The notes under the pieces are model-generated. The model had not been told where the DNA came from. It did not search any database and was given only the letters and a program-made list of their open reading frames with translations. This document shows, piece by piece, positions 492 through 38,014 of a stretch of DNA of 38,014 nt. The translations under genes were made by a program, and so were the position numbers. Numbering within the stretch: the stretch's first letter is position 1; each line of letters begins with the position of its first letter. The DNA is taken from contig PFUW01000003.1 in assembly GCA_002790315.1 (NCBI GenBank), positions 1 through 38,014 on the forward strand, in the 5' to 3' direction. This stretch comes from Candidatus Huberarchaeum crystalense. Its GTDB lineage: Archaea > Huberarchaeota > Huberarchaeia > Huberarchaeales > Huberarchaeaceae.

Positions 492-2933
492 ATGATTAAT
501 AAAAAAGCGCGCGCACCAAAAGTCTCAAAAAATTCAGAGCCACAAAACGGAGTTGACATAAACAACGCAGTAAACAAAATATCAAACATATTCTCAAACA
601 AAAAACTTCTTTTAAACTTTATTTATTTAATTTCTCTTATTGCAATTTTTTATGTTGCGTTTGATTTACGCGACGGTGCAATGGATTCTAAGTATTTCAT
701 TGATCCTGATGCAATGTATTTTTTTATGCGTGGTGAAGCGTATGCTGAATGCGGACAATCTGTCTGCACTCTTGATGGATTAGATCCAATGCGTCAAGCA
801 GGCAATACTTCAAACCCATTACCAGAGGTTAAATTTCATTTTATGTCTATAACTCTTGTTGGAATCCACAAAATTCTTGAACCTATAACTGGAATTTCAC
901 TTCAAAACACATTTATAAACCACCTACCTTATTTAACAGTCCTTGTTTTAATTGTTCTTTTCTTTATTGGAAAGGCTCTTTTCAACACACCTGCAGGCAT
1001 AATAACAGCTGGAATTGGCGCAGTTGCAGTTCCATCTCTTTTTAGGTCAAGCGCAGGTGCTCCTGACCATGATTTGTTTGGGCTTTTTTTTATTGTAATG
1101 GCGATTTTCTATTTTATTAAGTATTTTAGAGAGGAACAAAACCAAGACAAGGCAACAATTTTTATAATTTTAGCTGGAATCTTTACATTATTTACTCCTT
1201 TATTTTGGCATGGTAGTCAGCCATATATAACAATTCCAATTACAGCATATTTTGTTATAAAAGCACTATTATATAAAATAAATACTCGTGATTTGCTAAA
1301 TGCTAGTATATTTACCTTACTTTCAGCAATAGGTATGGTGTTAAATATGATTCCTAGTACTTCTTTTATGTGGGTTGAGATTTTTAAAGCAGTTGCAAAG
1401 AATATATATATTGATCTTTTGCTTGGAGTTGTTGTACTTTATTTGGTGCTTGTTTTAATTGAAAAATTCAAACTATATGAGAAATATAAAGTTAATTCAA
1501 AGGTTTTGGGTATTGGAGTAACTTTTATTATTGGGTGTTTTGGTTTGTTTGTTCTTGGTGGATTTAATTTCTCTTTGTTTGGAGCAATTTTTGACAAAAT
1601 TATCTCACCTGTTAGGGGTGTTGGTGGAAGTGGTGCAGCAGTTGTAGGATATACTGTTGCAGAAAACCAAGCAGTCAGTTTTGGCAATTTGTGGGCAACA
1701 TTTAATCTTGGGTCTGATTGGATATCATTTTTTATGCCATTTGCGCTTGCTATCTATGGATTTTTAATCCTTTTACTAATAATAATTTACCGCGCAATAA
1801 AGACAAAGCGACTCAATTTAACTTATCAGGAAATATTTTTAATTATAATGTTTTTGTTTTCTGCCTATGCAGCTCTTGGCGGCTCGCGCATGTTTTTCGT
1901 TTTCTCGTGGTTTGTAGGAATATTTACAGCAATGTTTTTCTACATAATATATACAAACCTTTCAAAAATAATTGACAAGCAAGGCATTCATATAGATGAC
2001 AAAAAAATTGTGCGTTTAATTTTGCTCGTTTGTTTGATTGTCTTAAGTATATTTATTTTTTACCAAAATTATAATATAGCAAATGCAAGCAAAGTGACAA
2101 TGGCATATACAAAACAAGCAGAAGGCTATGATATAACAGCATATTCTTGGATTCGCGAAAACACAAATGCAACAGATGTAATTGGACATTGGTGGGATTA
2201 TGGATATTGGACAGAATTTTTAGGCAGACGACCCGTTCATGTTGATGGCGGCGGCTCAGGAGATAGGTATGAAGTAGCATACAGATTTATGACAACACCT
2301 GACGAACAAGAAGCATACCAATATTGCAAAGACCATAAAATTAAATATTTTATGGTGTTTCCATCAGATCTTGGAAAATTTGTTCAAATGGTAAGAATTG
2401 GTCAAAGAGAAGGTGGTTTTGGTGTTTTAGGCAACCCCAGAACACAAGTTGGCAACAATGTTATTTATAATGTTTATCAAGGAGGTATAACCAAACCAAC
2501 TCCTGGCTTTTTTGAAGACATATATGGAGTTTTGGCAATTGGAAAATCAACAAATAAAAGCAACCTAACAGGAAATATTTTAGAAGCAAAACTAAATCTT
2601 ATGGTAATTCAAAACCAACAAAAAGTCTCTGAAACAGGAAATCAAAATTTGAAATATTTATGTACTTCTCAGGGGCTTGTGGATTTAGAAAATGGTGTTG
2701 ATAATGGATGCTTTTATTATATAAATGAATCTGTCAATCTTTATAGCTATAGTAATGGAATTTTATCTGATTACTACCCTGTTGTTTATAGCTCACCTGC
2801 AAATATGGTTGGATTACAACTTATTTTGTTCAATGCAAAAGGAATGAAGTACTTTGAGCTTGTCCATTCAGGAGATATAATAAATGATGGGGGAAGCATT
2901 GGTCGCATAAAAATATTCAAAATTGTTGATTAA
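492..2933 (+). CDS. aglB: Oligosaccharyltransferase AglB (STT3 family)
   Basis: Multi-TM N-terminal half; DPD, DHD and TVAE (TIXE-like) motifs; WWDYG and a DxxK (DLGK) motif in the C-terminal domain. Confidence 0.95.
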   Translation: MINKKARAPKVSKNSEPQNGVDINNAVNKISNIFSNKKLLLNFIYLISLIAIFYVAFDLRDGAMDSKYFIDPDAMYFFMRGEAYAECGQSVCTLDGLDPMRQAGNTSNPLPEVKFHFMSITLVGIHKILEPITGISLQNTFINHLPYLTVLVLIVLFFIGKALFNTPAGIITAGIGAVAVPSLFRSSAGAPDHDLFGLFFIVMAIFYFIKYFREEQNQDKATIFIILAGIFTLFTPLFWHGSQPYITIPITAYFVIKALLYKINTRDLLNASIFTLLSAIGMVLNMIPSTSFMWVEIFKAVAKNIYIDLLLGVVVLYLVLVLIEKFKLYEKYKVNSKVLGIGVTFIIGCFGLFVLGGFNFSLFGAIFDKIISPVRGVGGSGAAVVGYTVAENQAVSFGNLWATFNLGSDWISFFMPFALAIYGFLILLLIIIYRAIKTKRLNLTYQEIFLIIMFLFSAYAALGGSRMFFVFSWFVGIFTAMFFYIIYTNLSKIIDKQGIHIDDKKIVRLILLVCLIVLSIFIFYQNYNIANASKVTMAYTKQAEGYDITAYSWIRENTNATDVIGHWWDYGYWTEFLGRRPVHVDGGGSGDRYEVAYRFMTTPDEQEAYQYCKDHKIKYFMVFPSDLGKFVQMVRIGQREGGFGVLGNPRTQVGNNVIYNVYQGGITKPTPGFFEDIYGVLAIGKSTNKSNLTGNILEAKLNLMVIQNQQKVSETGNQNLKYLCTSQGLVDLENGVDNGCFYYINESVNLYSYSNGILSDYYPVVYSSPANMVGLQLILFNAKGMKYFELVHSGDIINDGGSIGRIKIFKIVD

Positions 2934-2936
2934 ATA

Positions 2937-3010
2937 GTGTCAAAAGTTAATTAATATTTTATTTTCTGACAAGATTTATTAAAGAAATTGGTGTCAAAAG
3001 TTAATTAATA
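2937..3010. repeat. Exact 20-bp direct repeat GTGTCAAAAGTTAATTAATA (2937-2956, 2991-3010)
   Basis: Read directly; period 54 bp; intergenic. Confidence 0.85.
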
Positions 3011-3083
3011 AACTATAATTCTTCTAAAGCTTGGCGCGCAAAAGTTAGAGGTTTGCTATAATAAATTATTAAAATATATTAAG

Positions 3084-4391
3084 ATGTTTAACTTGTTTAA
3101 AAAGATTTTTTGGGGTGAAAAAAAAGAAACAAAAAAACAAAAACTAATTAGTATAAGTTTTGATAATGTCTTAAATTTTGTTGAAAAACAAATTGTAGAA
3201 AAGCAAACAAATGCAAAGAAAAAAGCAGAAGAACTAATAGATGTGGTTTATTATGGGGTTTTGGAATTTAAAAACAAAACACAAGAATTAAAAGAAGCAA
3301 AGCCAAAAATAGAAGTATTTATTCACAAAAACTTTGATTTGAAAATTAAAAATGAATATTGTGACAGAATTTTGGCTGCAATAAATAAAATAGAAAAACA
3401 AAAAATAGAAATAAATGAACCAATTGATTTTTTAAATAATTGTGAAAGTGTATTTAGAATTGCTGGGGGGTTGGGTCCTAAAAACAACTATATGATATCA
3501 TATTTTTTTAAAGAATATTTAAAAGAGTTTGTAGATGCAAGCACAAAAACCCAAGATGCGATGGCAAAACTCAGTAAATTTATAAAAGAGGAAGGAAAAA
3601 TTATTTATACTAATAATGATATAAGCAACACACTAAAACATATTAAAAAAATAGAAAATAATCTTTTTGAAGAACAAAAAATGCATATTGCTCTTCTAAA
3701 AGAAATAAAAGATTTAGAAAAAAAAGCAACAACCTTAAAAATAGATTTATCAAATATTGAGAACAACAAAGGGTTTTTTGAGAGCAAAAAATTAAAAGAT
3801 GAAATACAAAAACTATCTCGAGAAAAAACAAAAATTCACCAGCAGCTAAGCACTGTTTTTGATAAAGCTCATAAAATGATTAAAAAATATTGGCATCTTT
3901 ATAAAGATGCTGATAAAACTTTTGTAAAGAAGTTAGAAGATTCTTTGGATTCTCTGACAGATACTTTTTTGCATGAAAAAAACGATGGTAAATATCTCCT
4001 TAAAGACATATTATCAAAGGTTGATACAACAATAAAAAATAAAAGCTTTGACTATGATGAAAAAGAACAGAACCAGTGGGTTTTGTTTATGGCTTCTTTT
4101 AATATAGATCTTGAAACAGAACACAAAAGACAATATCTTGAAATTGTAGATAAAATAGAAAAAAAAGAAGCGCAACTTAAAATGAAAACAGAAGAATATT
4201 TAAATAAAAAACAAAGTATAAGTAAAGAAATAAGGTCTATCGCTGATGAATTATCTGGTTTGGAAAAACAAAAGAAAAATATTGGGGAAAATGTGCGCGC
4301 ACTTGAATTAAAGCTAAAACAGGATAAAGAGATTCTTAACAATAAAGTTAGTAAAGCTGTGGATAAAGATGTTAATATTTTGTACAAATAG
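3084..4391 (+). CDS. Hypothetical coiled-coil protein
   Basis: 435-aa K/E-rich helical ORF with no recognisable catalytic motif. Confidence 0.8.
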   Translation: MFNLFKKIFWGEKKETKKQKLISISFDNVLNFVEKQIVEKQTNAKKKAEELIDVVYYGVLEFKNKTQELKEAKPKIEVFIHKNFDLKIKNEYCDRILAAINKIEKQKIEINEPIDFLNNCESVFRIAGGLGPKNNYMISYFFKEYLKEFVDASTKTQDAMAKLSKFIKEEGKIIYTNNDISNTLKHIKKIENNLFEEQKMHIALLKEIKDLEKKATTLKIDLSNIENNKGFFESKKLKDEIQKLSREKTKIHQQLSTVFDKAHKMIKKYWHLYKDADKTFVKKLEDSLDSLTDTFLHEKNDGKYLLKDILSKVDTTIKNKSFDYDEKEQNQWVLFMASFNIDLETEHKRQYLEIVDKIEKKEAQLKMKTEEYLNKKQSISKEIRSIADELSGLEKQKKNIGENVRALELKLKQDKEILNNKVSKAVDKDVNILYK

Positions 4392-5277: not shown

Positions 5278-6137
5278 CTATTTCTCTTTTGTTAAAATTC
5301 TATTTAAAATATTTTCTTTATCATATTCTTCTAAATCTGTGTGGGTTTGCCCTGTTCCAACAAATAAAATTGGTTTTTTAAACTCATAAGCCAAAGAAAC
5401 AATTCCCCCACCANNNNNNNNNCTTCAAACACAGCCACTTGGTTTACTCCATCATTCCCAGTCAAAGCATCAACAACAGCTATTGTTAGGTTAGGCTTTG
5501 CAATACGCTTAATTTTTTTCAACTCGTTTGTGAGATTTGTATTTGTGTTAGACCTTCCCGCTGTATCTATTAAAACAACATCTATTTTATTTGCTTTTGC
5601 ATAATTAACAGCATCAAAAGCCACAGCAGCAGGATCGCTTTTGTATTTGTGTTTTATAATTGGAATATCTAATTCTTTTGCCCACATACTGATTTGTTCA
5701 ATAGCAGCAGCGCGAAAGGTGTCAGCAGCTCCAAGCGCGCACTTTTTTCCATGCATCTTTAAATAATTGACGAGTTTTGCAATTGTTGTTGTTTTCCCCA
5801 CACCATTAGCCCCTACAAACAAAATAATAAATGGTTTTTGTTTTTCTATTTCTTTTAATAAATCAATCTTTGGCAGATCTAAAACTTTAATCAAAGCATC
5901 TCCAAATGTTTTTCTAAATATTTTTTCAATCTCGCTTTTTTTGGTAAGTGGTTTTACTTGCGCGCGCAATTTTTCACAAATCTTTACAGCCACCCCTTCT
6001 GAGACATTTGCTTGGAGCAGTGAAACTTCAAATTCATTTATTTTTTGCTCTATTTCTTTCTCGCTACAAGTTGATTCGCAAGCAGCTGTAATTTTTAAAA
6101 CAGCTTCACTAAAACTTTTTTTCAAGAGGTTAAACAT
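5278..6137 (-). CDS. ftsY: Signal recognition particle receptor FtsY (spans an assembly gap)
   Basis: GANGVGKTTTIAKL, DTFRAAA and DTAGR motifs. After the N-gap at about 5414-5422 the C-terminus GGGIVSLAYEFKKPILFVGTGQ...EK* continues in another frame to TAG at 5278. ATG at 6137 is the likely start. Confidence 0.93.
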
Positions 6138-6440: not shown

Positions 6441-6726
6441 TATACTTATTTTTTAGCAACAGAATCTAACACAAACATTGATTTTCTAATCTTTTCAACA
6501 ATATATGCTACTATATATAAATATATTATAATTTTTCAAAGAATTTTCACAAAGTTGTAAAAAAATTGAAACTTTATTCTAAAATTTTAATTGTTCTAAA
6601 CTTTCGCAGCCTGAATTTTATTAGAACTATCTTTTCAGGTTGTTCTCAGGCAGATTTATAAAAATTGTTAAACATATATTTTAAAAATCTTATGTGTTAC
6701 GCAAGTTTTAGGATTTGCGCGCACAA

Positions 6727-6800
6727 GGGCCTGTAGCTCAGTTGGTCAGAGCGCACGACTGATAATCGTGAGGTCAAGAGTTCGAATCTCTTTAGGCCCA
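6727..6800 (+). tRNA. tRNA-Ile, anticodon GAT
   Basis: Acceptor GGGCCTG/TAGGCCC; anticodon arm CACGA-CTGATAA-TCGTG; T arm AAGAG-TTCGAAT-CTCTT. Confidence 0.95.
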
Positions 6801-7111: not shown

Positions 7112-7876
7112 ATGGGCAAGGTAATAGGTATTGTATCTGGAAAAGGTGGAGTAGGAAAAACAATCTTTTCAGTGAACTTAGCGAGCACATTAGCCAAAAA
7201 GGGCTTTTCTGTCTTGCTTATTGATACAAATGTGACTTCACCAAACATTTCTTTTTTCGTCGGCTCTCCGATTAAAAGATACACTCTTACAGATGTTTTA
7301 TCAGGAGAATGTAATATTAATGATTCTATTTATGCTTATACAAAAGGAAATTTTTCTTATATGCCTAGCAGTTTGTCAATCAATAAACTATACAAAGTTA
7401 GTATTTCAAAATTAAAATCTATTGTAGACGCACTTAAAACCCAATATGACTATGTTGTTCTTGATGGACCTGCAAATATGGGTGGAGAATTCTTAGAGGT
7501 TGTGCGCGCCTCAGATGAACTCGCTGTAATTGCCACACCAGATATTATTTCAGTTACAGATGCATTGCGCGTGCTTGAATTTGGCCGCCGCCACGGAAGA
7601 AAAATAATAGGGCTTATTATTAATAAATATGAACAAAAAGATTATAATTTAAAGGTTAAAGATATTGAACTTTTAGCAGGAGATAAATTGTTTGGAGCAA
7701 TACCGCGCGACGAAAACATAAAGATGTCGCTTGTTAAGCGCGCGCCAGTCTGCCTTTTATATCCAAAAACAAATTCTACATTTGCGTTTGAGCAAATCGC
7801 TTGCAAAATCGCTGGTCTGCCTGTTCCTATAAAAAAGAAAAATTTGTGGGATAAAATCTGCTTTTGGAATGATTAA
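7112..7876 (+). CDS. minD: MinD/ParA-family ATPase
   Basis: Deviant Walker A SGKGGVGKT; YDYVVLDGP; possible C-terminal amphipathic helix (KKNLWDKICFW). Confidence 0.88.
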   Translation: MGKVIGIVSGKGGVGKTIFSVNLASTLAKKGFSVLLIDTNVTSPNISFFVGSPIKRYTLTDVLSGECNINDSIYAYTKGNFSYMPSSLSINKLYKVSISKLKSIVDALKTQYDYVVLDGPANMGGEFLEVVRASDELAVIATPDIISVTDALRVLEFGRRHGRKIIGLIINKYEQKDYNLKVKDIELLAGDKLFGAIPRDENIKMSLVKRAPVCLLYPKTNSTFAFEQIACKIAGLPVPIKKKNLWDKICFWND

Positions 7877-9231: not shown

Positions 9232-10434
9232 TTAAATCCCTAAAAACCACAAAATTGTTGGAACAAGCAAAACACCCATAAGTTGAGAGTGGCGGCAACC
9301 AACATAATTTGGCAAAATTCCAAGAAACATTGCGATTGTAAAAACAAGCAGTCCATAAAATCCACACATAAACACAACCATACAAAACAGAAAAAGCAAA
9401 ACAATCTTTATCAACAAAATATAATCAAGCAAAGCAAAAATCTTAATAAAGTGCTTTCCAAGAAATAAAGTCAAAACAGCGCCAGCAAAAACAGCAAAAA
9501 AGCAAGCAGCAATCAAAACAAAAATCTCATTCAAAACAAGATTTGGACTTATTATTGAAATAGCAACAACTGCACCAGATCTGGTTTTTTCAAGTAAATA
9601 TAAAGTCAGCAAGCAAACAAAAACATTTACAGTATTTATCGCGCCTGTTGCAATTAAAAATGTGCGAACATTCCTTAGAGCAGGATTAATTTCCATTGCA
9701 AGTATGTTTGCTTGTGCAGGTCCAACCCCGGGGAGAAAACTAAGTGCTGTGCCTGCAATTGTTCCTGTGATTCCACCTTGCAAACTCTCGCTCTTATAAA
9801 CTTTAAAATTAAGATCTTGCTTAGGGGGGAGCGTTGTTTTGTGCAAAATACTAAACAGCAAAAAACTCGCACCAAAAAGTCCTGAAAGCATAGGGAAAAG
9901 TGGTTTGTCAATAAACCCTGCGCGCAAAACCATAAAACCCAAAGCACCTGAAAGCAAAAAAATTGTTGCCGCCCAAAAGATTTTTGGGTCGCGCAAAATT
10001 AATAACAAAGAAATTATAATAAGAATAAAGGCCATATATTGCTCAACAAAAAAATAAAATGCGTTCAAGAAAAAGAATAAAAGTGGTGAAAGCCCTAGTA
10101 CAAACAAAAAGCCAAAAATTCCGCCAAAAACAGTCAAAGCAACTGCTTCATAACCTTGTCCTTTCATAAGAAGCTGGTGGCCCGGCAAAATACTAAGTGC
10201 TGTTTCTGGTTCTGGTGCACCCAAATAAATTGAAGGAATAAAATCAACAAAAGAATGAACTATTGCCACAACAAGTATAAAAATTGAAATTTCAAAAGGA
10301 GAAAAATAATTTAAAAGAAAAACAGATGTAGCCAACAAACCAGCAGCAATAGTATTAATATGAATCCCTGGCATTAAACCAGTAAATACTCCAACTAACG
10401 CACCAACAAAAAGAACAAAAACAAAATCAAGCAT
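9232..10434 (-). CDS. TctA-like (DUF112) tripartite tricarboxylate transporter family permease
   Basis: GVFTGLMPGIHINT, FIPSIYLGAP, ALSILPGH and LPGVGPAQA motifs; polytopic membrane protein. Confidence 0.85.
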   Translation of the reverse strand: MLDFVFVLFVGALVGVFTGLMPGIHINTIAAGLLATSVFLLNYFSPFEISIFILVVAIVHSFVDFIPSIYLGAPEPETALSILPGHQLLMKGQGYEAVALTVFGGIFGFLFVLGLSPLLFFFLNAFYFFVEQYMAFILIIISLLLILRDPKIFWAATIFLLSGALGFMVLRAGFIDKPLFPMLSGLFGASFLLFSILHKTTLPPKQDLNFKVYKSESLQGGITGTIAGTALSFLPGVGPAQANILAMEINPALRNVRTFLIATGAINTVNVFVCLLTLYLLEKTRSGAVVAISIISPNLVLNEIFVLIAACFFAVFAGAVLTLFLGKHFIKIFALLDYILLIKIVLLFLFCMVVFMCGFYGLLVFTIAMFLGILPNYVGCRHSQLMGVLLVPTILWFLGI

Positions 10435-10837
10435 TGTTTTTTACTTTCTCAACTCTCTCTGCAAAAAGCACAACCCCATACCAATAATTTACTATACCAA
10501 CAACATTTACTTTTTCACCAGATGAAGGAACATATAAATCAGAATTACGCAAATAAACAACAATCTCGCTATTTTCATCAGTTAAAGTAAAGTGGGCGCG
10601 CGTCTCGTTTCGCATGCAAAGACAAAATGTGTTGTCGTGAAACTCGCGATTAAATTTGCTTTTGACAATCTTTGTTGCAACTCCTTCAACTGCAACAACA
10701 TAATTTAACATATCAACAGATATGTCTGCAACTGCAATTTTCTTAGGTGCAAATGTCAAATAAACAAACAAAACAAGGATTAAGCCAATAATGCTTAAAA
10801 CAAAAAATATTTTTATATAATTGTTGTTTTGGTTCAT
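10427..10837 (-). CDS. Membrane-anchored OB-fold protein
   Basis: N-terminal TM helix followed by an OB-like pattern (VAVEGVATKI...FTLTDENSEIVVY...GEKVNVVGIV...AERVEKV); overlaps the permease start by 8 bp. Confidence 0.65.
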   Translation of the reverse strand: MNQNNNYIKIFFVLSIIGLILVLFVYLTFAPKKIAVADISVDMLNYVVAVEGVATKIVKSKFNREFHDNTFCLCMRNETRAHFTLTDENSEIVVYLRNSDLYVPSSGEKVNVVGIVNYWYGVVLFAERVEKVKNNA

Positions 10838-11488: not shown

Positions 11489-11510
11489 ATATTTTTGTCG
11501 GGTTTGTTTG

Positions 11511-11774
11511 GGGCGCGCATTAGCCTGCCTTATACTTTCTTCTTGGTTAAAACCAACAGAAGCAGAAACATTTATCTACAGCCAAAGCTGTGTTAGCGAT
11601 ATTATATCTTGCATTCAAGAGGCAAAGAAATTTCATCCAAAATGTGCGCGCTCAATTAATATCACAGCTTGCGCAAATCAGGTATTTTCTGTTTCTTTGC
11701 GAGACATTACATCTACACACTATACGAATGGGCAGAACTTGGTTCACTTTGCAGCGAAAGTTTCTTACGCACCC
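11511..11774 (-). ncRNA. rnpB: RNase P RNA (short, divergent)
   Basis: Minus strand folds as P1 GGGTGCGTA/TGCGCGCCC, P2 AGAAAC/GTTTCT, P3 TTCGC/GTGAA, P4 AGT(T)CTGCC/GGCAGGCT, P5 CATTC/GAATG and P10-11 GCAAAGA/TCTTTGC. CR-II ACAGAAA, CR-III GATGAAA, TGCAAG and AGATAAATG occur in the correct order. Confidence 0.88.
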
Positions 11775-26669: not shown

Positions 26670-29177
26670 TTAACAAACAATATAGGATTGGTTGTTATTT
26701 TTGCACAATTTTATTATGTGCTGCGCTGATTTTTCAAAGTCACTTTCATGAGAAACAATTATGATTTGTTTGAGTGGCAATAAACTAAAAACTTTCTGCA
26801 TATTTTGAATTTGCTCAGGACCAAAGCCAGTTGTTGGTTCATCTAAAATTAATATTCCCTTTAATGCAGATATACCATATTTTTCAAGCAAAACAGCAAG
26901 GGTTAAATAATAAGAAAGTGCAGCAGCGGTTTTTTCACCACCAGACAAATCTTCAAACAAAAAAACAGAATCATCAACTGAAAATATAGGTGTAAATTTT
27001 TGGTCAATTTCAACTAAAAAATCACTGTTTTGCAATAGCATTTTGAAATATTTTCTAAACAAAACTTCAAAATTTTTTAAGATTTCTTCTGTAACTCTTG
27101 TTTCAATTGTATTTAATATTTTAATAAAAACATTGTCCATCCAATATATTATTTGTTCTTTTTGCTCTTTCACTTTTTTTTGCAGTTCAAGATTTATTTT
27201 GTCTCTTTTTATTTTTTCTATATCTTTTTTAATATTAGTCATCAGTTGCTCTATTTTTCCCATAAGATATTGCGCACCCTCAATCTCAGTTTGCATTGCT
27301 TGTTTTTCTGTTTGAACTTTTTTTAAATCTTCATTAAGTGTGATGCTTATTGGTTGTAAAACAACACCTATCTTTTGGCAACCTTCTGTTATTTTCTGAA
27401 TTTCGTCAATTGTTTGGTTATATCTTTGTTTTTCTTTTTCTTTTTGCTCTTCAAGTATTTTAATCTTTTCAGCTAACAACAAAGCATTTTTGTTTTTTTC
27501 AAGTATTTCAACAATATTTTTTTCCTCTTTTGTTATTAGTATAGTGTTTTGGTGTTTTTGTTTAATTTGTTCTTGTAACCATAGTTGCTTTTCGCTAATT
27601 TCTTCGTTTTCATTCTTTATATTTTTTGCCTTTGTTTTTAAATCTTCAATACTTATGTTTAGCTCTGTTATTTCATTATATTTTATTATAAATAACTCTT
27701 TGTTTATACTTTCAATATCTTTTAATAATTCAGTTTTTTTATCTTTTTCTGTTTCACTTTCTTTTATTTTGTCATTAATTTTTTTTAGTTCAGTGATAGA
27801 GTTCTTTATATTTATATTAATATTTTTCAACAAATCTGTTTTTCTACTATCCTGCAAAATGGACTCGCAAATGGGGCAAATAGATTTTGCTCCTGAAATC
27901 TCAGTTCTTTGTTTTTCCAAATTTTTTAGTATAGTATTTAATATTTGTTCTTTTCCCTTTAAAATTTCTCTTTCTTTTGTTAATCTATTATTTTCTATCT
28001 GCAAATTTTTTCTACTCTCAGAAATTCTATTTATTTTTTCTATATCTACTTCTTCCCCAAATATTCTGAAATATTTTTCTTCAACTTCTTTAATATAGAT
28101 TTGGCATTCAGATATTTTTTTATTTGTTTCTGCCACCAACATCCCTTGGTGCCTTATGTCTTCAAGCAATTTATTTTTTTGTTTACTTATCTCTTCAAAT
28201 TGCGTTTGATATTTAACAATTTGTTGATTCAGTTTGTCTTTTTGGTAGTGTATTTCGTTTTGTTTGATTTTAAGAAGCGCAAAATTTTCAGCAGGTTTTA
28301 TTTCTATTTTTGTTTTAGAGTCATTCATTTGTTTTATCTGTTTATCTAAACTCAATATGTTGTTTTTTGTGTTGTTATTGTCTTTTTCAAGAAAACTCAA
28401 ATTTTTCTGAAGAGTTAATAGCTGTTGTTTATTTTTTTCTGCGCCCCCAAGGTTTTTTTGCATTTTTTCATATTTAATATTAATATCTAAAAAAATCTGT
28501 TTTAATTTAGTTATGCTTGCTGCTTGTTTTTTGAGTTTTATTTCAAGATTTTCTTTTTCTTGCTCTAAATTTTCTGCTTGTTTTTTTATGTCATTTAATT
28601 GTTCAACATCTTTTTTAAGCAAAGCAATCTCTTGCCCCATATCGCGCCCAATATATTTTTTATTTTCTCTGCATTGTTGATATTTTTTTATATTAAATAT
28701 ATCTCTTACCATATTCATTCTTTCTTCTTCATTAGAATACAAAATCTGTTTAATTTTGTCCTGGACAACATAAAATATTGGAGATGAACTACTAATGTTT
28801 TTAATATTTAAAATAGCGGTTATGCGCGCGTTTATTTCTGTTGGACTTAAAATTGTTTTTTTATTGTTAGTTATAATATATGCTTCCTCTTGCATTATTT
28901 GCGTTTTTTTCCTTTTAATTGTTCTTGATATTGTGTATTTTTGATTATTCTGTTCTATTTCTATAATTATATTGCCTCTTTCAGCATCTTTTTTCAGCAA
29001 TCTACTGAGAATTCCTCTTCCAATTGAATTTCCGAACAACGCAAAACCAATTGCCATTAGAAGCGTTGTTTTGCCTACGCCAACAGGCCCTTGAATAAGA
29101 GTTATATTTGGTGAAAAGCAAAAGTCAGCTTCAGCATAACTTCTAATATTTTTTAAATATATGCGCTCGATTATCAT
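26670..29177 (-). CDS. rad50: Rad50/SbcC-type SMC-like ATPase
   Basis: LKNIRSY, Walker A GPVGVGKTT, zinc hook CPIC within a long coiled coil, signature LSGGE, Walker B ILDEPT, VSH; ATG 29177 is the likely start. Confidence 0.9.
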   Translation of the reverse strand: MIIERIYLKNIRSYAEADFCFSPNITLIQGPVGVGKTTLLMAIGFALFGNSIGRGILSRLLKKDAERGNIIIEIEQNNQKYTISRTIKRKKTQIMQEEAYIITNNKKTILSPTEINARITAILNIKNISSSSPIFYVVQDKIKQILYSNEEERMNMVRDIFNIKKYQQCRENKKYIGRDMGQEIALLKKDVEQLNDIKKQAENLEQEKENLEIKLKKQAASITKLKQIFLDINIKYEKMQKNLGGAEKNKQQLLTLQKNLSFLEKDNNNTKNNILSLDKQIKQMNDSKTKIEIKPAENFALLKIKQNEIHYQKDKLNQQIVKYQTQFEEISKQKNKLLEDIRHQGMLVAETNKKISECQIYIKEVEEKYFRIFGEEVDIEKINRISESRKNLQIENNRLTKEREILKGKEQILNTILKNLEKQRTEISGAKSICPICESILQDSRKTDLLKNININIKNSITELKKINDKIKESETEKDKKTELLKDIESINKELFIIKYNEITELNISIEDLKTKAKNIKNENEEISEKQLWLQEQIKQKHQNTILITKEEKNIVEILEKNKNALLLAEKIKILEEQKEKEKQRYNQTIDEIQKITEGCQKIGVVLQPISITLNEDLKKVQTEKQAMQTEIEGAQYLMGKIEQLMTNIKKDIEKIKRDKINLELQKKVKEQKEQIIYWMDNVFIKILNTIETRVTEEILKNFEVLFRKYFKMLLQNSDFLVEIDQKFTPIFSVDDSVFLFEDLSGGEKTAAALSYYLTLAVLLEKYGISALKGILILDEPTTGFGPEQIQNMQKVFSLLPLKQIIIVSHESDFEKSAQHIIKLCKNNNQSYIVC

Positions 29178-29314
29178 ATTTTTTTGTGTTTTGTTGGTGT
29201 GGGAATACATATAATAAATTGTGTTTGCATCTCTAAGTTTTTTTGTTTGCGCGCCACACACCACTAAAAAACATTTTCAAAAATACATATTGCTCGATCT
29301 TTTTTAAAAAAAAT

Positions 29315-31726
29315 ATGGTGCTTGATAAAAAATATAATCCCGCATCTTTTGAAGAGGAGATTATTAAATTCTGGCAAGAGAACGAAGTTTTTAAATTTAA
29401 TCCCAAAACAACCAAAAAAATATTTTCAATTGATTCACCACCACCATATGCTTCAGGAGACATTCATGTTGGTCACATTATGAGTTATGGACATTTTGAG
29501 TTTGCTGCGCGTTACTGGAGAATGCGCGGAAAAGAGGTTTTTTATCCTTTTGGGTTTGATGATAATGGTCTTCCAACAGAAAGATATGTTGAAAAAAAAT
29601 ACAATATTAAATCAGTAGATATGCTGCGTAAAGAGTTTAGAGATCTTTGTTTAAAAGAAGTCACACAACTCGACGAATTATACAAAAACATTTTTACTCG
29701 AATGGGACATTCAATGGATTGGTCACTTTCATACAATACTATAAATCCATATTGTACAAAAATGTCGCAAAGATCTTTTATTGATCTTTATAAAAAAGGA
29801 AGAGTGGAGAGATTAGAAGAAGCGGTGATTTGGTGTCCTTTTTGCCAAACAGCACTTGCTCAAGACGACCTTGAAGACGCAGAAAAAGAAACATTTTTAA
29901 ACACAATTTTATTTGAACTTGAAACTAAAGAAAAAATTAAAATAGCAACAACACGACCAGAACTTTTGCCTGCGTGTGTTGGAATTTTTGCACATCCTGA
30001 TGATGAACGATATAAAAATTTTGTTGGAAAAAAAGCAAAAATTCCTATTTTTGGAGGTGTTGTTCCTATTATGGCTGACGATAAAGTAGATATGGAATTT
30101 GGAACAGGGCTTGTTATGGTATGTACTTTTGGAGATCAAACAGATATTGATTGGTGGAGAAAATATGATCTTCCTTTAAAAAATGTATTAAATAAAGATG
30201 GATCTTTAAATAAGTTAGCAGGTAAGTATAAAGGCACATTTATTAAAGATGCTCGCGCAAAAATAATAGAAGATCTCAAGTCAGAAAATCTTTTAATTGA
30301 GCAAAAGAAAATAATGCATTCTGTAAATGTTCATAATAGATGTAATGTTCCTGCAGAATATATTGTTTCACTTCAATGGAAAATAAAACAACTTGATCTA
30401 AAAAATAAAATGATAGAGCAAGGTCGAAAAATAAAATGGTATCCTGATTTTATGCGTTTAAAATATGAAAATTGGGTTAATGGATTAAAGTGGGATTGGA
30501 TAATTTCGCGCCAAAGATGTTTTGGCATACCTTTTCCAATATGGTATTGTAAAAAATGTGGAAAAACAATTATAGCAGATGAAAGTGAATTGCCTGTTTA
30601 TCCAACACAAGATATGCCCAAAAAAAAATGTAGTTGTGGGTCAATAGATTTTTTACCAGAGACAGATGTTATGGATACTTGGATGACTTCATCAATATCT
30701 CCGTTAATTACTGCAAAATGGGGGGAAAAAGATAATTTAATGAATATAGTATACCCTTTTTCTTTAAGACCACAAGGACATGACATAATACGAACATGGG
30801 CTTATTATACAATTTTAAAGAGCCATCTTCACACAAATTCTATTCCTTGGAAAACAATTGCTGTTTCAGGGTGGGGGCTTGATGAAAAAGGCAAAAAAAT
30901 GTCAAAATCAAAAGGAAATATAGTAGATCCACAAGATGTTATCAAAAAATATTCTGCTGATGCCTTAAGATGGTGGGGGGCAACCGTAAGAGCAGGCGAG
31001 GATTTTTGTTATAAAGAACAAGATGTACAAGATGGCTTTAAATTTTTAAATAAAATTTGGAATGCATCTCTTTTTGTTGAGATGTTTTATAATAGTGATG
31101 TTTTTGAAAAAAACAACACAGAGCTATCTAAGAAAAACAGCAGGGTTTTGGACAAATGGATTATTCAAAAATTCAGGAAAGTTCTTGACAATTCAAGTAA
31201 AGCAATTGAAGAATATAATTATGGAGATGTTAAAAGAAATTTGTTTCAGTTTTTTAAAACCCATTTTTGCGACAATTATCTTGAATTTATTAAATGGCGG
31301 CTTTACTCTAATGAAAATATAAAAGCAAAAACATCTGCACAATATTATGTTGCATTTGTATTAAAAAACTCTTTAAAATTATTCCATCCTTTTATTCCTT
31401 TTATAACTGAAAAGATTTGGATGGACTTATTTGATGAAAATAAAAGCATTGCTATTACTTTATGGCCAGAATTGTCTGAATTTGATGAAGATACACAAGC
31501 AGAAAAAATTGGTGACTTTGCTTTTAAAGTTATTGAAGATGTTAGGGTATGGAAAGCGAGCAACAAAAAAAGCGTTGCATATGATAATTTTTCTTTAGAT
31601 CTGACGATTCCCGATGCATCTTTTAATGAAGTTGTAGAAGACATAAAAAATATTGTGCGCGCAAAAAAAATATCTGTTGTTATTAGTAAGGATTATCAGG
31701 TTATTTGTAAAAATTTAGAGAATTAG
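29315..31726 (+). CDS. valS: Valine--tRNA ligase
   Basis: IDSPPPYASGDIHVGH, GFDDNGLPTE, ATTRPEL, DWIISRQR, RPQGHDII and KMSKS. Confidence 0.95.
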   Translation: MVLDKKYNPASFEEEIIKFWQENEVFKFNPKTTKKIFSIDSPPPYASGDIHVGHIMSYGHFEFAARYWRMRGKEVFYPFGFDDNGLPTERYVEKKYNIKSVDMLRKEFRDLCLKEVTQLDELYKNIFTRMGHSMDWSLSYNTINPYCTKMSQRSFIDLYKKGRVERLEEAVIWCPFCQTALAQDDLEDAEKETFLNTILFELETKEKIKIATTRPELLPACVGIFAHPDDERYKNFVGKKAKIPIFGGVVPIMADDKVDMEFGTGLVMVCTFGDQTDIDWWRKYDLPLKNVLNKDGSLNKLAGKYKGTFIKDARAKIIEDLKSENLLIEQKKIMHSVNVHNRCNVPAEYIVSLQWKIKQLDLKNKMIEQGRKIKWYPDFMRLKYENWVNGLKWDWIISRQRCFGIPFPIWYCKKCGKTIIADESELPVYPTQDMPKKKCSCGSIDFLPETDVMDTWMTSSISPLITAKWGEKDNLMNIVYPFSLRPQGHDIIRTWAYYTILKSHLHTNSIPWKTIAVSGWGLDEKGKKMSKSKGNIVDPQDVIKKYSADALRWWGATVRAGEDFCYKEQDVQDGFKFLNKIWNASLFVEMFYNSDVFEKNNTELSKKNSRVLDKWIIQKFRKVLDNSSKAIEEYNYGDVKRNLFQFFKTHFCDNYLEFIKWRLYSNENIKAKTSAQYYVAFVLKNSLKLFHPFIPFITEKIWMDLFDENKSIAITLWPELSEFDEDTQAEKIGDFAFKVIEDVRVWKASNKKSVAYDNFSLDLTIPDASFNEVVEDIKNIVRAKKISVVISKDYQVICKNLEN

Positions 31727-33741: not shown

Positions 33742-34284
33742 TTACACTATAACTGTTTCTAAATATGGTTCTTTGTTAGAGCTAACTTCTTGAAGCCAAT
33801 TAATAACTGCTCTGTGCTTTGAGCCATTTATAATCTGCTCAATTGTGTTTTTGGCAAGACCTGTGTTTTTTGCAGATCCAATAATATATGCTTTACTGGT
33901 GTTAATTAGCAAAGCAACATCACACAACACCTCAATTTTTTTTCGTATTTTTCCTTGCTTGCCAATAATTCTGCCAGCAATAACTTTTTGACGGTTTTTG
34001 TTTTTGTGTTTAAAAGATATTTGTGTTAAAAAAACATCTAGCTCTTTAAGTTTAATTGCATTATTGGGTGTAAATCCTATAGAGATTGCAGAAAGTATAT
34101 TTACTGCTGTTTCTATGTTTAATATGTCTTTGCCACTTATTTTTGCGATTCCTTTATTTATCTCTATAACTGTATGTGTTATTTTTTCAATTTTTGCTTT
34201 TGTTTCTCCCTTGTTTCCTATTATTGTTGCTGCGCGCTTTTCATCAAATACAATAATTTCTTCATATAATTTTTCATTAACCAT
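33742..34284 (-). CDS. KH-domain rRNA-processing protein (Dim2/Pno1/Krr1 family)
   Basis: IIGNKGETK and GRIIGKQGKIR GxxG loops; AISIGFTP; IINGSKH. Confidence 0.88.
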   Translation of the reverse strand: MVNEKLYEEIIVFDEKRAATIIGNKGETKAKIEKITHTVIEINKGIAKISGKDILNIETAVNILSAISIGFTPNNAIKLKELDVFLTQISFKHKNKNRQKVIAGRIIGKQGKIRKKIEVLCDVALLINTSKAYIIGSAKNTGLAKNTIEQIINGSKHRAVINWLQEVSSNKEPYLETVIV

Positions 34285-34728: not shown

Positions 34729-35067
34729 TTACTCATATTCTCTACTAATATACCCACATTTTAAACATTTATAAAATCTTGTTGGTGGTTCATCGCTCGC
34801 GCGCGTTTGCTTCATCCAAAAAACTGCTTTTAAATTAGAGCATTTCGGGCATCCATGTTTGACTGTTGGAAGTTTCTTTGTTTCAATATCTTCATTAAAT
34901 ATACTAACTTTTTTCTCACTTTTTTCTATGCTTTCGCAAATAATGCAAGCTTTAACGCGACCTTTTTTTTCTGTTTGCTCTGTTCCGCAGCACCTACACA
35001 CAAAAATAGTTTTTTCTCCTTGTTTTCTTGAACTGCACAACCCCCCACATTTATTACAAAAAATCAT
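34729..35067 (-). CDS. tfs: Transcription elongation/cleavage factor TFS
   Basis: Two Zn ribbons (FCNKCG...CRCCG; CPKC...KCLKCG) and the acidic hairpin QTRASDEP. Confidence 0.93.
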   Translation of the reverse strand: MIFCNKCGGLCSSRKQGEKTIFVCRCCGTEQTEKKGRVKACIICESIEKSEKKVSIFNEDIETKKLPTVKHGCPKCSNLKAVFWMKQTRASDEPPTRFYKCLKCGYISREYE

Positions 35068-35199: not shown

Positions 35200-37127
35200 A
35201 TGTTTTATATAAACAGATCATACTATATTTACCTTATAAACAGATCATACTATATTTACCTTATAAACAGATCATACTATATTTACCTTATAAACAGATC
35301 ATANNNNNNNNNNNNNNNGAACAAAATAAAGGTTTAAGTCCAGACCTAATTCCAAGATATGGATTTGGAGCAACGCCAGATGGGGGTATGACTGCTCAAC
35401 TATCGTATGAGCAGCAAGTTAATCAAATAATTAATTGGGGTGCAAAAGCAATAGAAATTTCTGTGTTTCCCTGGGGTATTGGAGGAGCTAAAGGTAAGGC
35501 AGGGGTTCCACCATCAGACGAATCTATGGGTATTATTAAGCAACTTGTAAATTTAAATAATATTTCATTTGGAATTCATGCACCATATTCTATGCAAGGA
35601 GTAGGATCTGAAAGTATTGTAAATGTAATTCATGATTCTAATACAGATGCAGGAGCGCGCTTTCAAAAAGATTCAACAGACCTAATGCAAAGGTTAACAT
35701 ATGTTGCAGATAAAACTGGCGCGCAATGGATAAATATACACACTACTTTTGAGAATTGGACTTCGCCACAGAAAGGTGAATCTGGAAAACCTGTGGCAAA
35801 GCATGCAACTGTTTATGATGTTGCTTCTGGTATGTATATTCCAGTACAACGCAACAAAATAGGTGTAGATTCTGAAACAAATGAACTATTATGGGAAACA
35901 GATGCAGAAGTTGCAAATAGGATTAATAAAGATTTTTCTAATCAACTTGAAAAACAAGTATCTTCTGACATTTATAGTACAGATATAACTTATTACTCTT
36001 TTGTTAGGCCCTTAGNNNNNNNAAAGCAATTAGAGCAACAAGAGAAAAAAATCAAGGAAGAATTCTCTTTAGAGATAGCAGATGCCATTAAGCGGTTGGA
36101 AGAGAGAAAAGAACTTTTTAAACCAATACTTAAAGCATCTTTTAGCAATCTTATCAAAAATTTATCTGCGAATGAATATAAATACCATCTTAGCGACAAT
36201 GCCTTTAATTTGATGGAAAAATATGTTGAAGACCCCAAGTTTGGAGAGTGGATTAACAAAGATGATAGTATGCGCGATGAATTAAGAGGGGAGATAAGTA
36301 GGTTAAAGCGTGAATGGGATTCTGCGCGCAAAAGAGGTAAAGAAGGAATTGATCCTGGTGAAAAGGGTATTTTAACTTGGAGTAAGGCAATTGTTGAAAA
36401 TGGATCATCTAATTTGGCCAAAATGATGGAAAATATTGACAAATATGAAAAAGAAAAATTAAATAAAAAAGATAGTAACTTAAAAATCTTTGTTGAAAAT
36501 CCAGATATTAGGTTTTTGGGAGATGCAGATACCACAGCAGAAATGGTTATAGAAGCACAAAAAAAGCTAAGAAATATTGGAAGGTCAGATCTTGCTGAAA
36601 GGATAGGAATGAATATGGACACATCTCATGCCAATTCTTTTTGGGGGGTAGAATCTATTGAAAGTCAAGGTCAGGATAAAGGAAAAGTTATAACTTCAGG
36701 AGGAATAGCAGAACAATGGGAAGAAATAAAAAAAAACAAACAACTAGCTGCAATAAAGCATATGCATCTTAATGATACACCTGGCGGCGAACATATTATT
36801 TCACCAATGGGTGTTTCAAAAGAGTTTGGAGGGATGGGTATTAAAGGTGCCGAGACAATTTTGAGTGATTTAAAAAAACACGGGAAATATGATAAAATGC
36901 AAGTTGTTTTAGAATCTGGCGCGCTTTCAGGAGTTGGTTTTAAAATGTCTCAAGAAGCAATAGATAGAAGCAATATAGGAGGATATTATTATAATACTCC
37001 TATTGTGCGTGGAATGTCACCTTTTGCTGCACCTTCTTTTTACTCAGACCATTTGTTTATAGGACAAAATCAACAAGGGCAGGATAATTCTTATTTTAAG
37101 ATGACTCCTGATTTTAAGTTTTTTTAA
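35200..37127 (+). CDS. Xylose-isomerase/AP-endonuclease-2-like TIM-barrel protein with a large insertion
   Basis: GIHAP, NIHT, FVENP, MDTSHA, MHLND and VLE metal-ligand pattern. The frame is open back to the gap (35319), so the start lies upstream of 35388, probably at ATG 35200 (uncertain across the gap). Confidence 0.75.
35208..35303. repeat. 27-bp tandem repeat TATAAACAGATCATACTATATTTACCT, at least 3.5 copies, running into an N-gap
   Basis: Exact copies read directly. Confidence 0.85.
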
Positions 37128-37181
37128 ATAATTTTGCACAACACACAAAATCTTTTTTAAAAATTTTTGAGTAAATATTAT

Positions 37182-38014
37182 ATGGCATACCTTACCAAAA
37201 GTAAAAACATATTAACAATAGCACTTATCTTTTTTGCAGTCTTTGCGATTTTTATTAGCAAAACAGGAATTGTTTTAGCAGCAAGCTGGGGTGATTTGAG
37301 AATTACAGAGGTTTTATATGATGCTAATAACACAGCAGAGTGGATTGAATTATATAATCCAACCAACAACAACATAACTATTTCACAAGATTGGAAATAT
37401 TATGATATTACTACAAACAGCAATGGCGAAACATTATTTCAAANNNNNNNNNNAATCTTTTTAGATGGTTGGAATGATGTGAGCAATTGGAAACAAAGTG
37501 CATATATGTATGGAACACCATGTGGAGCAAATAGTGTATCTCCAACAATCAACACAAACACTTCTTTATCTTGCGGAATAAATTTAGAGCAAAACATTTC
37601 AACGAGAAATTATTGGCGCGCAGGTGAGACTTTTTTAGCAAATGCATTTTTTAACACAGGTGGGTTTTGGAATCCATTGAATATTTCATTTAATGTAAAA
37701 TTATCTGCACTAAATCAAAACAACAATACAATTAATTTAGGTTTTGATAATGTATCTGCAACAGAAAATCAAACAAATGAAACTAGTTTGTCTTTTGTTA
37801 TTCCAAATATAACAAATCAAATTTACAATTTAACACAGACAGTTTCAAACCTATTTTATTGGCGCGATAATGGGAATTCGTGCAACATGGTATATAAAAA
37901 CAACCAAACATCTTGCGACAACTGTAGCTGTGTTTTGGATTTGTCTTTTGAAGTTTTGAAAACACTTAATGCAAGTGTTAAAATCAGCACAGACAAACAA
38001 ATTTATTCTAATCT
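37182..38014 (+). CDS. Secreted lamin-tail-domain surface protein (runs off the window)
   Basis: Signal peptide, then LRITEVLYD...EWIELYNPT...W...GTPCGAN; many N-x-S/T sequons; frame open to the window end; absent from the ORF track. Confidence 0.85.
   Translation, partial: MAYLTKSKNILTIALIFFAVFAIFISKTGIVLAASWGDLRITEVLYDANNTAEWIELYNPTNNNITISQDWKYYDITTNSNGETLFQXXXXIFLDGWNDVSNWKQSAYMYGTPCGANSVSPTINTNTSLSCGINLEQNISTRNYWRAGETFLANAFFNTGGFWNPLNISFNVKLSALNQNNNTINLGFDNVSATENQTNETSLSFVIPNITNQIYNLTQTVSNLFYWRDNGNSCNMVYKNNQTSCDNCSCVLDLSFEVLKTLNASVKISTDKQIYSN

Follow-up and report, generated by a model that had tools for sequence, protein, structure and literature searches.

Iterated palindromes have so far been a cyanobacterial curiosity, and their function has been argued over for 30 years. 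The available portions of three papers describe the highly iterated palindrome HIP1 (GCGATCGC) as 15-300x over-represented, conserved and quasi-periodic (PMC5861425), as associated with methylases (PMC4390886) and as linked to transformation (PMC13756078), with its function debated between methylation-directed repair, nucleoid structure and DNA uptake or transformation (PMC4390886, PMC5861425, PMC13756078). The present work concerns a comparable word, GCGCGC, in the 38,014-nt contig PFUW01000003.1 (assembly GCA_002790315.1) of Candidatus Huberarchaeum crystalense; this whole stretch of DNA, positions 1 to 38,014, is called the window below. The original prediction, made from the letters of the window alone, was that of a motif system comparable to HIP1; that such a system acts at the DNA level, and is no by-product of Ala-Arg codon pairs or dinucleotide usage, is borne out by the shuffling, non-coding and codon-context results given here.

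Across the genome GCGCGC proves to be a DNA-level signal that is used as a whole hexamer, is symmetric and unskewed, is carried on resident DNA and shows short-range exclusion; it overrides codon preference and, apparently, some amino-acid choices. The reading that we tentatively prefer, with somewhat less than even confidence, is that of a lineage-specific, HIP1-like iterated palindrome on resident DNA, kept there by selection or drive acting through a putative reader. The signal is of HIP1 type and of comparable strength, it stands in an archaeal genome of ~0.5 Mb, and it fixes half of the Ala-Arg codon pairs; the genome being small and the candidate genes few, finding the reader should be tractable.

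Counts of GCGCGC in the window and the genome

The window is contig C39 of a 42-contig, 453-kb genome (78% complete, 0.07% contamination), the sole representative of its phylum in the collection searched. The markers in the window are archaeal (PolD DP1 and DP2, primase, Rad50) and its GC content per 2-kb bin runs from 21 to 34%; membership of the source archaeon in DPANN is plausible, the genome being small, the window archaeal and this the lone genome of its phylum among those searched. GCGCGC occurs in the window 46 times if overlapping matches are counted, at 39 separate loci, seven of which are GCGCGCGC (starting at 507, 5960, 7738, 13966, 16672, 21697 and 25168). These numbers match exactly those counted by hand for the original prediction, and all 20 coordinates quoted there hold the motif. 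In 100 dinucleotide-preserving shuffles of the window the mean was 1.01 (standard deviation 1.2) and the largest count 5, with none of the 100 reaching 46, as expected from the claim that the sites lie far above chance. Further GCGCGC sites of the window could be hidden under 96 bases that are masked, in 10 short runs.

In the whole genome 509 sites are present, on nearly all contigs and at a density of about 1.1 per kb, against a per-strand expectation of 6.9 from base composition (M0) and of 18 from a first-order, dinucleotide Markov model (M1). No other hexamer in the genome is as over-represented as GCGCGC, which stands at 74x M0 and 28x M1. Counted on both strands, the 1018 occurrences compare with 13.8 under M0 and with 36.3, 335, 551 and 973 under Markov models of first, second, third and fourth order, respectively; the high-order models approach the observed count because their sub-words occur mostly inside GCGCGC (GCGCG continues with C in 1018 of 1578 cases). 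Six other palindromic hexamers made only of G and C stand at expectation (12-20 vs. 13.8, both strands), and after dinucleotide correction CGCGCG is enriched 23.5x and GCGCGC 28x. Over-representation beyond base composition had been claimed for the window; by k-mer counts under Markov and codon-shuffled models it holds genome-wide.

Genes were called crudely, as the longest open reading frames (ORFs) of at least 90 aa, greedily chosen. Within the 394 ORFs so obtained there are 439 sites, against 48.1 +/- 6.8 (maximum 66) in 200 synonymous shuffles; phases 0, 1 and 2 hold 151, 120 and 168 of them, phases 0 and 2 reading Ala-Arg and Arg-Ala. Non-coding DNA (27% GC) has the remaining 70, which is 35.8x M1 as compared with 26.8x M1 in coding DNA, at a density of 0.81 per kb vs. 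1.20 per kb in coding DNA. Codon usage and Ala-Arg codon pairs are rejected as the cause by these figures (439 vs. 48 in the shuffles, 120 sites in phase 1, 35.8x in non-coding DNA), and dinucleotide bias is rejected by the 28x excess over M1 and by the window shuffles, 0 of 100 of which reach the observed count.

A trivial origin, whether in Ala-Arg codon pairs, dinucleotide bias, slippage, a dispersed repeat or assembly error, could appeal to the Ala-Arg and Arg-Ala readings of phases 0 and 2 and to the closeness of the fourth-order Markov count, 973 vs. 1018, although there the sub-words lie mostly inside the motif. It has to face not only the shuffled, non-coding and phase-1 counts just given but also the facts that slippage would shift the reading frame and yet coding DNA is the denser in sites, that sites in PolD encode invariant residues, that flanks are at background (both described below), and that three independently assembled contigs share the same sites; we regard such an origin as scarcely credible. 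The enrichment survives the dinucleotide, codon-usage and Ala-Arg codon-pair controls that the original prediction had set against itself. Its description of the sites as lying in genes of both strands, in different frames and in intergenic DNA likewise agrees with what is seen with the crude ORFs: both strands and all three phases are used, and three sites are non-coding (3034, 6717 and 29249). One placement had to be given up, that of a site within an RNase P RNA: the window holds no Rfam match to such an RNA, either at gathering thresholds or at E<=0.01, and the RNA genes detected there by Rfam and tRNA searches are 5 tRNAs only.

Some other words also depart from expectation. CTAG, CATG and ACGT are strongly under-represented genome-wide, at 0.45-0.51 of the second-order expectation, and outside alternating runs CpG stands at 0.60 and GpC at 1.57 of expectation, with TpG/CpA raised.

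The favoured unit and its placement

The complete hexamer GCGCGC, not GCGC, is the favoured unit, and it is favoured cooperatively. Maximal alternating runs in the genome comprise 410 of GCGC, 387 5-mers, 300 of GCGCGC, 46 of CGCGCG, 73 7-mers, 63 of GCGCGCGC, 2 of CGCGCGCG and 4 9-mers, with none of 10 bases or more. With runs of at least 5 bases masked, isolated GCGC stands at 1.15x M1, which rejects this word, that of HhaI and HinP1I, as the true core; AGCGCT and GGCGCC stand at ~0.4x M1. The original prediction had proposed GCGC, CGCG and GCGCG as possible cores to be checked, and the check points to the hexamer, isolated GCGC being unenriched. When single bases of the hexamer are changed, variants at the outer bases keep 3.8-7.5x enrichment and variants at the centre drop to 1.0-1.6x; transitions are not in excess over transversions, and the deamination-type neighbours GTGCGC (3.9x M1) and GCGTGC (1.5x M1) show no depletion.

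Flanking positions are at background base frequencies within four bases, with C at -1 in 21% of cases and a weak T(-1)/A(+1) preference that is in line with GCA being the preferred Ala codon. Out to +/-120 bp the GC profile stays level, with no GC shoulder, no periodicity is seen near the sites, at 10 bp or otherwise (strongest value 0.315 vs. a random 95th percentile of 0.458), and there is no strand skew, GCGCGCA and TGCGCGC totalling 166 and 150 on the 13 contigs longer than 15 kb. A dispersed repeat element, resembling repetitive extragenic palindromes or miniature inverted-repeat transposable elements, is rejected by flanks that are at background by +/-4 and by the flat GC profile. A (GC)n microsatellite arising by slippage is rejected by the lack of any run of 10 bases or more and by the density of sites in coding DNA, where 2-bp slippage would cause frameshifts, and nucleosome-like flanks are rejected by the absent GC shoulder and a periodicity within the random range. 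The suggestion of chromatin positioning accordingly finds no support in the flanking GC profile or in any 10-bp periodicity, and that of Z-DNA formed by (CG)n finds none in run length, no alternating run reaching 10 bases; six base pairs is short for Z-DNA.

Codon choice gives the clearest view of the hexamer. Silent opportunities to form it are used in 439 of 971 cases (~45%), namely 151 of 304 in phase 0 (Ala-Arg), 120 of 370 in phase 1 and 168 of 297 in phase 2. The 151 Ala-Arg pairs written GCG-CGC represent ~41x the context-free product of the two codon frequencies, against ~4.7x for the pentamer GCG-CGD, and from this difference it follows that the hexamer is favoured cooperatively. The share of CGC among Arg codons rises from a base rate of 15% to 29% when the codon precedes a G, to 42% in Arg-Ala where a full site is impossible, and to 67% in Arg-Ala where a full site is possible; that of GCG among Ala codons rises from 8% to 21% when it precedes a C, to 50% where both flanks are permissive and to 64% within Ala-Arg. 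The dipeptides themselves are shifted, with observed/expected ratios of 1.38 for Ala-Arg, 1.57 for Arg-Ala and 0.77 for Lys-Ala, as compared with 0.95-1.12 for Ala-Arg and Arg-Ala and 1.01-1.09 for Lys-Ala in 77 distant archaeal loci, which suggests that conservative amino-acid replacements of the Lys-to-Arg type have been recruited to create sites. In the large subunit of PolD, residues A26-R27-A28 and A333-R334 are invariant in relatives 75-78% identical, and therefore those sites are silent codon choices, not insertions; an insertion origin of sites is rejected on this ground.

Sites show no preference for any part of a gene and their number per gene is close to Poisson, while spacing is more even than random. 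When realised sites were permuted among the silent opportunities, 24.3 +/- 4.1 nearest-neighbour gaps of less than 50 bp were expected and 2 were found, 0 of 2000 permutations being as low. The pair correlation shows 3 pairs at 3-50 bp vs. 31.7 expected, a weaker deficit to ~150 bp and none past 200 bp; between 3 and 25 bp the deficit arises in part because runs beyond (GC)4 are lacking. The most loci in any gene, 10, are found in a giant ORF of 2298 aa at C5:35896-42792.

It is conceivable, though we think it quite improbable, that what is selected is not a protein site but a physical property of alternating G/C, in the form of a duplex 'clamp' within AT-rich DNA, a Z-DNA-prone tract or RNA self-pairing. 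Both registers are enriched after dinucleotide correction (28x and 23.5x), the flanks favour longer alternation (C at -1 in 21%), palindromy comes automatically with alternation, and avoidance of hairpins would account for the rarity of close pairs. However, continuation of the runs declines (GCGC 410, (GC)3 300, (GC)4 63, (GC)5 0) and none reaches 10 bases, there are 300 isolated (GC)3 and only 46 isolated (CG)3, the jump from pentamer to hexamer is steep, the length falls short of that usual for Z-DNA, and other G+C-only hexamers are unenriched, which speaks against a GC clamp. Alternating-GC patterns, hexamers included, are generally suppressed in prokaryotes, as stated in the available part of PMC4060949, and this genome is therefore an outlier.

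Resident DNA, relatives and candidate readers

GCGCGC is absent from contigs C1, C17, C24 and C42 and from the 23S rRNA contig C31. The dinucleotide signatures of C1, C17 and C24, and also those of C13 and C32 (2 sites each), lie beyond all 400 size-matched native fragments; that of C42 lies only between their 95th and 99th percentiles. Observed/expected CpG is 1.3-1.5 on C1, C17 and C42, as against 0.7-0.9 on typical contigs, and these three, 8.8 kb together, would hold ~10 sites at the density of the genome. Several of the longest site-free stretches of native contigs are also atypical in composition and encode ORFans or a giant surface-type protein. C17 (4.9 kb, 35% GC) carries a rolling-circle Rep gene (REP_ORF2-G2P/Rep_1, L084:2596-3720) and otherwise ORFans, and may be a virus or a small plasmid; on C42 there is a fragment of an N6/N4 methylase. 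The absence of the motif from compositionally foreign contigs fits the idea of self-recognition put forward in the original prediction. It also gives GCGCGC a practical use as a sharp binning marker, by which the motif-free contigs with a restriction-modification (R-M) cassette, the Rep element and the methylase fragment are likely foreign or mis-binned.

Three contigs call for separate comment. The 37.6% GC of the rRNA contig C31 (23S rRNA gene at L085:328-3138) argues for a mesophilic or cold habitat, not a thermophile. The atypical C13, with its 2 GCGCGC sites, has a giant ORF of 2103 aa (L087:16-6327) with MopE-type metal-binding repeats and DUF11. The best Rfam match on C7 (L089:238-324, plus strand) is to the bacterial small signal recognition particle (SRP) RNA, RF00169, at 45.6 bits vs. 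a gathering threshold of 40; in a genome otherwise archaeal, this may be a fragment of a divergent archaeal SRP RNA, or else C7 may be a foreign contig.

The R-M cassette, on C1 (2.2 kb; L001:71-2005, minus strand), is a complete type II system consisting of a 64-aa helix-turn-helix (HTH) controller, a 332-aa C5 methylase and a 250-aa endonuclease. Among relatives of solved structure the methylase is closest to M.HhaI (E 1.8e-49, over the catalytic half only), and the alignment of the endonuclease with R.HinP1I (E 1.2e-79) runs from one end to the other; HinP1I and HhaI, the relatives of these enzymes, are specific for GCGC. Close homologues of the endonuclease on short contigs number in the thousands. 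Among 120 homologues listed, the 4 that are named (81-93% identity) belong to Patescibacteria, 'bacterium' and a Paludibacteraceae bacterium, and none is archaeal. C1 sequence is present in 4 of 4 sequencing runs examined that also contain the genome, with the locus multi-allelic in 2 of the 4, and the cassette is probably mis-binned or mobile. Genes near-identical to it are very common on short groundwater contigs.

One could nevertheless connect the motif with this cassette, GCGCGC being two overlapping GCGC that methylation-linked processes would enrich. The presence in the bin of an endonuclease like R.HinP1I from end to end and a methylase like M.HhaI, the co-occurrence of C1 with the genome in 4 of 4 runs, and the association of HIP1 with methylases in the available part of PMC4390886 can all be cited for such a link. 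We consider it very unlikely: the cassette lends no support because C1 is foreign in composition and free of GCGCGC, its named homologues are bacterial, the locus is multi-allelic and GCGC alone is not enriched (isolated GCGC 1.15x M1, AGCGCT and GGCGCC 0.4x). R-M sites are, moreover, normally avoided and here there is a 28-74x enrichment, and another archaeon, G008 (below), is mildly enriched with no C5 methylase found. The search for a GCGC-type methyltransferase that had been proposed thus succeeded in part; it yielded a methylase and endonuclease pair, but on a foreign-looking, motif-free contig, and in the native contigs only an adenine methylase was found.

That enzyme, the only methylase found on native contigs, is a D12 adenine methylase with an N-terminal HTH fusion, encoded on C19 together with an 863-aa RecB/AddA-like protein (the two at L137:7822-10413 and 396-1583). 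The latter combines UvrD-helicase, UvrD_C and PDDEXK_1 domains and lies directly upstream of gyrA; it accounts for the single PDDEXK_1 match in the genome, in which a second AddB/RecC-like subunit was not seen. Both proteins are unusual for a very small archaeal genome. In ORF set A4, two ORFs match the PADLOC 'homing endonuclease' model, at up to 3e-104, and may be host proteins resembling the intein-bearing proteins behind the model.

With the helicase-nuclease of C19 as candidate reader, GCGCGC might be a sequence like Chi or like an uptake signal, spread by molecular drive. A frequency of ~1 per kb, occurrence in core and not in foreign-looking DNA, and spacing more even than random are hallmarks of Chi and of uptake signals, and the protein of 863 aa with UvrD-helicase and PD-(D/E)XK nuclease domains on a native contig would suit such a role. 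We find it a poor prospect. The Chi sites and uptake signals known so far all lack symmetry and depend on orientation, and GCGCGC is a perfect palindrome without any extension that is skewed; the 78% of the genome at hand yielded neither ComEC nor DprA, nor the second AddB/RecC-like subunit. The Chi of Lactococcus and Streptococcus, given as GCGCGTG in the available part of PMC5959072, is for Lactococcus one base off alternating GC.

A neutral bias of mutation or mismatch repair, of the very-short-patch type or through a T:G glycosylase that prefers certain contexts, might continually convert near-cognate words to GCGCGC throughout resident DNA, with no function for the motif and with close pairs then purged by purifying selection. 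It would be expected to act as strongly or more so in non-coding DNA, to enrich partial words in a graded way and to accumulate its products in resident, not foreign-looking, DNA, and all three are seen; there is also one HhH-GPD glycosylase, on the native contig C5, and CpG is depleted and TpG/CpA raised outside runs. On the other side, Vsr, NucS and a native cytosine methylase were not found in the available sequence, very-short-patch drive predicts a depletion of GTGCGC and GCGTGC that are in fact at 3.9x and 1.5x M1, and independent conversion alone does not predict the exclusion zone. The conservation tests on HIP1 reported in the available part of PMC5861425 argued against explanations of this kind. 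For GCGCGC we think a neutral bias unlikely, if worth keeping in view.

As to the distribution of the signal, three contigs from metagenomes, which match the window at 99.6-100% identity in aligned blocks, have 20, 26 and 20 sites vs. 0.4-0.6 by M1; the ~20 distinct substitutions in these population contigs, none in a motif, are uninformative. The stretch is present in 24 listed groundwater or aquifer sequencing runs, with no RNA run among those listed. By protein search the nearest relatives of PolD are two proteins of 75-78% identity, followed by a gap down to <=46%, and metagenome contigs searched for related loci gave nothing between this population and its distant relatives. Among 77 distant loci (DP2 identity of 33-47% in the segment that aligns best) none exceeds 7 GCGCGC sites, and in the table for 400 other archaeal genomes none has at least 1 site per kb together with a forward/control ratio of at least 2. 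Twenty genomes with a high ratio were sampled (<=20 kb each), and most are simply GC-richer, for example G162; the only mildly enriched genus among them is g9 (G008 and G241; ~38% GC; PolD 45-47% identical over the best-aligned segment). In G008 (283 kb) GCGCGC is the top hexamer by M0, at 11.5x M0 and 5.7x M1, with other GC-rich words at 4-6x M0, and in neither G008 nor G241 was a C5 methylase found. Dense GCGCGC is therefore confined to the one population among the relatives checked, the 77 distant loci and the 400 archaeal genomes giving no comparable signal. The full-text literature, subscription journals and supplements being outside its scope, yielded no description of an iterated palindrome or of GCGCGC in archaea or DPANN, in keeping with the claim that the motif was undescribed there.

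The hexamer would, on the reading of a HIP1-like palindrome kept through a reader, be the recognition site of a symmetric, presumably dimeric, protein that binds or modifies double-stranded DNA, and selection, or drive by recombination or repair, would keep about one site per kb. Palindromic symmetry and the steep step from pentamer to hexamer fit a dimeric reader better than they fit a physical property that acts by degrees or single-strand readers of the Chi or uptake type, whose sites need not be palindromes. A dispersed mark, of which one site per neighbourhood is enough, would accord with the exclusion zone and with the lack of sites in foreign DNA; such a mark would accumulate with residence time and might, as is argued over for HIP1, label the cell's own DNA for exchange, recombination or repair, or help to organise the chromosome.

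Several observations weigh against this reading. No reader protein has come to light: in a six-frame Pfam search of the genome, 78% complete, native contigs were without a C5 or N4/N6 methylase of the kind sought, PADLOC (391/394 ORFs, in three sets) added no further methylase or endonuclease family among the families listed (25 of 228 and 25 of 38 in two of the sets), and Vsr, NucS, ComEC (PF03772) and DprA (PF02481) were not found. Isolated CGCGCG is itself ~10x enriched, by arithmetic from the run and hexamer counts, and codon choice favours shorter alternating words too (CGC 29% before G vs. 15%; GCG 21% before C vs. 8%), so that a physical property of alternating G/C, acting by degrees, is still conceivable. 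As for the short-range exclusion, it might arise simply because two self-complementary GC hexamers are harmful when close together, and the weaker enrichment in G008 and G241, without a C5 methylase, might mean that part of the effect is generic.

The methylation basis put forward in the original prediction is unsupported so far, a link with methylation being neither shown nor excluded. A cytosine methylase acting as reader could come from the missing 22% of the genome or from a host cell; an enzyme supplied by a host is conceivable, and an exchange of methylases between a DPANN symbiont and its host has been proposed in the available part of PMC11001535. More speculatively, and we think rather unlikely, GCGCGC would be a self-DNA 'barcode' of a host-dependent archaeon, read by a dedicated symmetric protein outside the methylase and restriction families searched, which would need a single site per neighbourhood to distinguish the cell's own chromosome from host, plasmid or viral DNA in the course of repair, recombination or DNA exchange. 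If true, it would be an independently evolved archaeal counterpart of the role that HIP1 and uptake sequences may have in bacteria.

Sites along the window and comparison with known systems

Along the window, the first locus is an octamer, (GC)4, at 507..514 in ORF 492-2933(+), which reads Ala-Arg-Ala. GCGCGC at 3034..3039 is non-coding, 44 nt upstream of ORF 3084, and within that ORF (3084-4391(+)) a site at 4295..4300 is in phase 2 (V-R-A). ORF 5331-6137(-) contains 5735..5740 in phase 1 (C-A-L) and (GC)4 at 5960..5967 in phase 2; 6717..6722 is non-coding, 5 nt upstream of a tRNA-Ile (6727-6800); and ORF 7112-7876(+) contains 7504..7509 and (GC)4 at 7738..7745, both in phase 2. Phase 2 is seen again at 9920..9925 in the TctA-family ORF 9232-10434(-), at 10596..10601 in ORF 10427-10837(-) and at 11513..11518 in the crude ORF 11508-11852(+), which has a further site at 11646..11651 in phase 0 (A-R). 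The site at 12559..12564 belongs to an antisense ORF of 91 aa or else to the M24 peptidase ORF 12422-13654(+), in its 5' part, the gene call being uncertain. Beyond it, (GC)4 at 13966..13973 reads Ala-Arg-Ala in ORF 13690-14397(+), and 15633..15638 is in phase 2 of ORF 15356-15829(-).

The primase-domain ORF 15881-18028(-) has sites in phase 2 at 16275..16280, 16672..16679 (a (GC)4), 17490..17495 and 17928..17933, and in phase 0 at 17849..17854. The same ORF shows, at ~17288-17430, a cluster of differences in the population contigs and a BLAST self-alignment at an offset of ~50 bp, and this region looks like a short variable tandem duplication.

ORF 18383-19597(+) has a phase 1 site at 19002..19007. 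In the PolD small subunit, ORF 19839-21632(+), sites at 20101..20106 and 21511..21516 are in phase 1 and those at 20820..20825 and 21111..21116 in phase 0; in the large subunit, 21622-24939(+), (GC)4 at 21697..21704 encodes A26-R27-A28 and GCGCGC at 22618..22623 encodes A333-R334. (GC)4 at 25168..25175 in ORF 24973-25332(+) reads Ala-Arg-Ala, and phase 0 is used at 26174..26179 in ORF 26051-26629(+) and at 28824..28829 in the Rad50-like ORF 26670-29264(-). Where the Rad50-like ORF and the class I tRNA-ligase ORF diverge, the site at 29249..29254 lies between their 5' ends or at them, depending on the start codons; the ligase ORF, 29243-31726(+), has another at 31657..31662 in phase 2. The remaining sites are in phase 2 at 34232..34237 (ORF 33742-34284(-)), 34799..34804 (ORF 34729-35067(-)) and 37616..37621 (ORF 37167-38012(+)), and, in ORF 35388-37127(+), in phase 0 at 35655..35660 and 36324..36329 and in phase 1 at 35719..35724 and 36919..36924.

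Very-short-patch repair near Dcm sites in E. coli can raise the frequency of the methylated palindrome and lower that of the deamination product, and the effect is small; in contrast, the enrichment here is 28-74x, no Vsr was found in the genome as available and the deamination-type neighbours are undepleted. The uptake signal sequences (USS) of Pasteurellaceae and the DNA uptake sequences (DUS) of Neisseriaceae, which can accumulate by molecular drive, are similar in their frequency of about one copy per kb, in using every frame of coding DNA and in being scarce in foreign DNA. They differ in being asymmetric, 9-12 bp long and read by competence systems, whereas GCGCGC is a 6-bp palindrome in a genome in which ComEC and DprA were not found. 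Hosts normally avoid their own R-M sites, unlike the situation here, where GCGCGC is enriched 28-74x, isolated GCGC is unenriched and the cassette is foreign-looking. What R-M systems do share with the motif is that there are known protein readers of these words, of GCGC (HinP1I/HhaI) and of G|CGCGC (cut by BssHII; PMC4081073), and that a HinP1I-type cassette is in the bin. The likeness to Chi is that a short word rich in G and C is in excess in an AT-rich genome, one that here encodes a RecB/AddA-like helicase-nuclease; Chi is asymmetric and strand-skewed, and GCGCGC is symmetric and unskewed.

The closest likeness is to HIP1. Like GCGATCGC in cyanobacteria, GCGCGC is a short perfect palindrome, over-represented tens-fold and present both in genes, in any frame, and between them, and it has the features of a HIP-type word, a palindrome at least 15-fold enriched that occurs in all frames and in intergenic DNA beyond what codon usage explains. 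HIP1, in the available parts of the papers on it, occurs up to about once per gene and is reduced or absent in some lineages (PMC4390886, PMC5861425, PMC13756078). GCGCGC differs in having 6 bp instead of 8, no GATC core and a home in Archaea, not cyanobacteria, and while HIP1 has two methylases, DmtA and DmtC, no native cytosine methylase was found in the present sequence. If such a methylase is truly absent, iterated palindromes would be separable from methylation, which would bear directly on the debate over HIP1.

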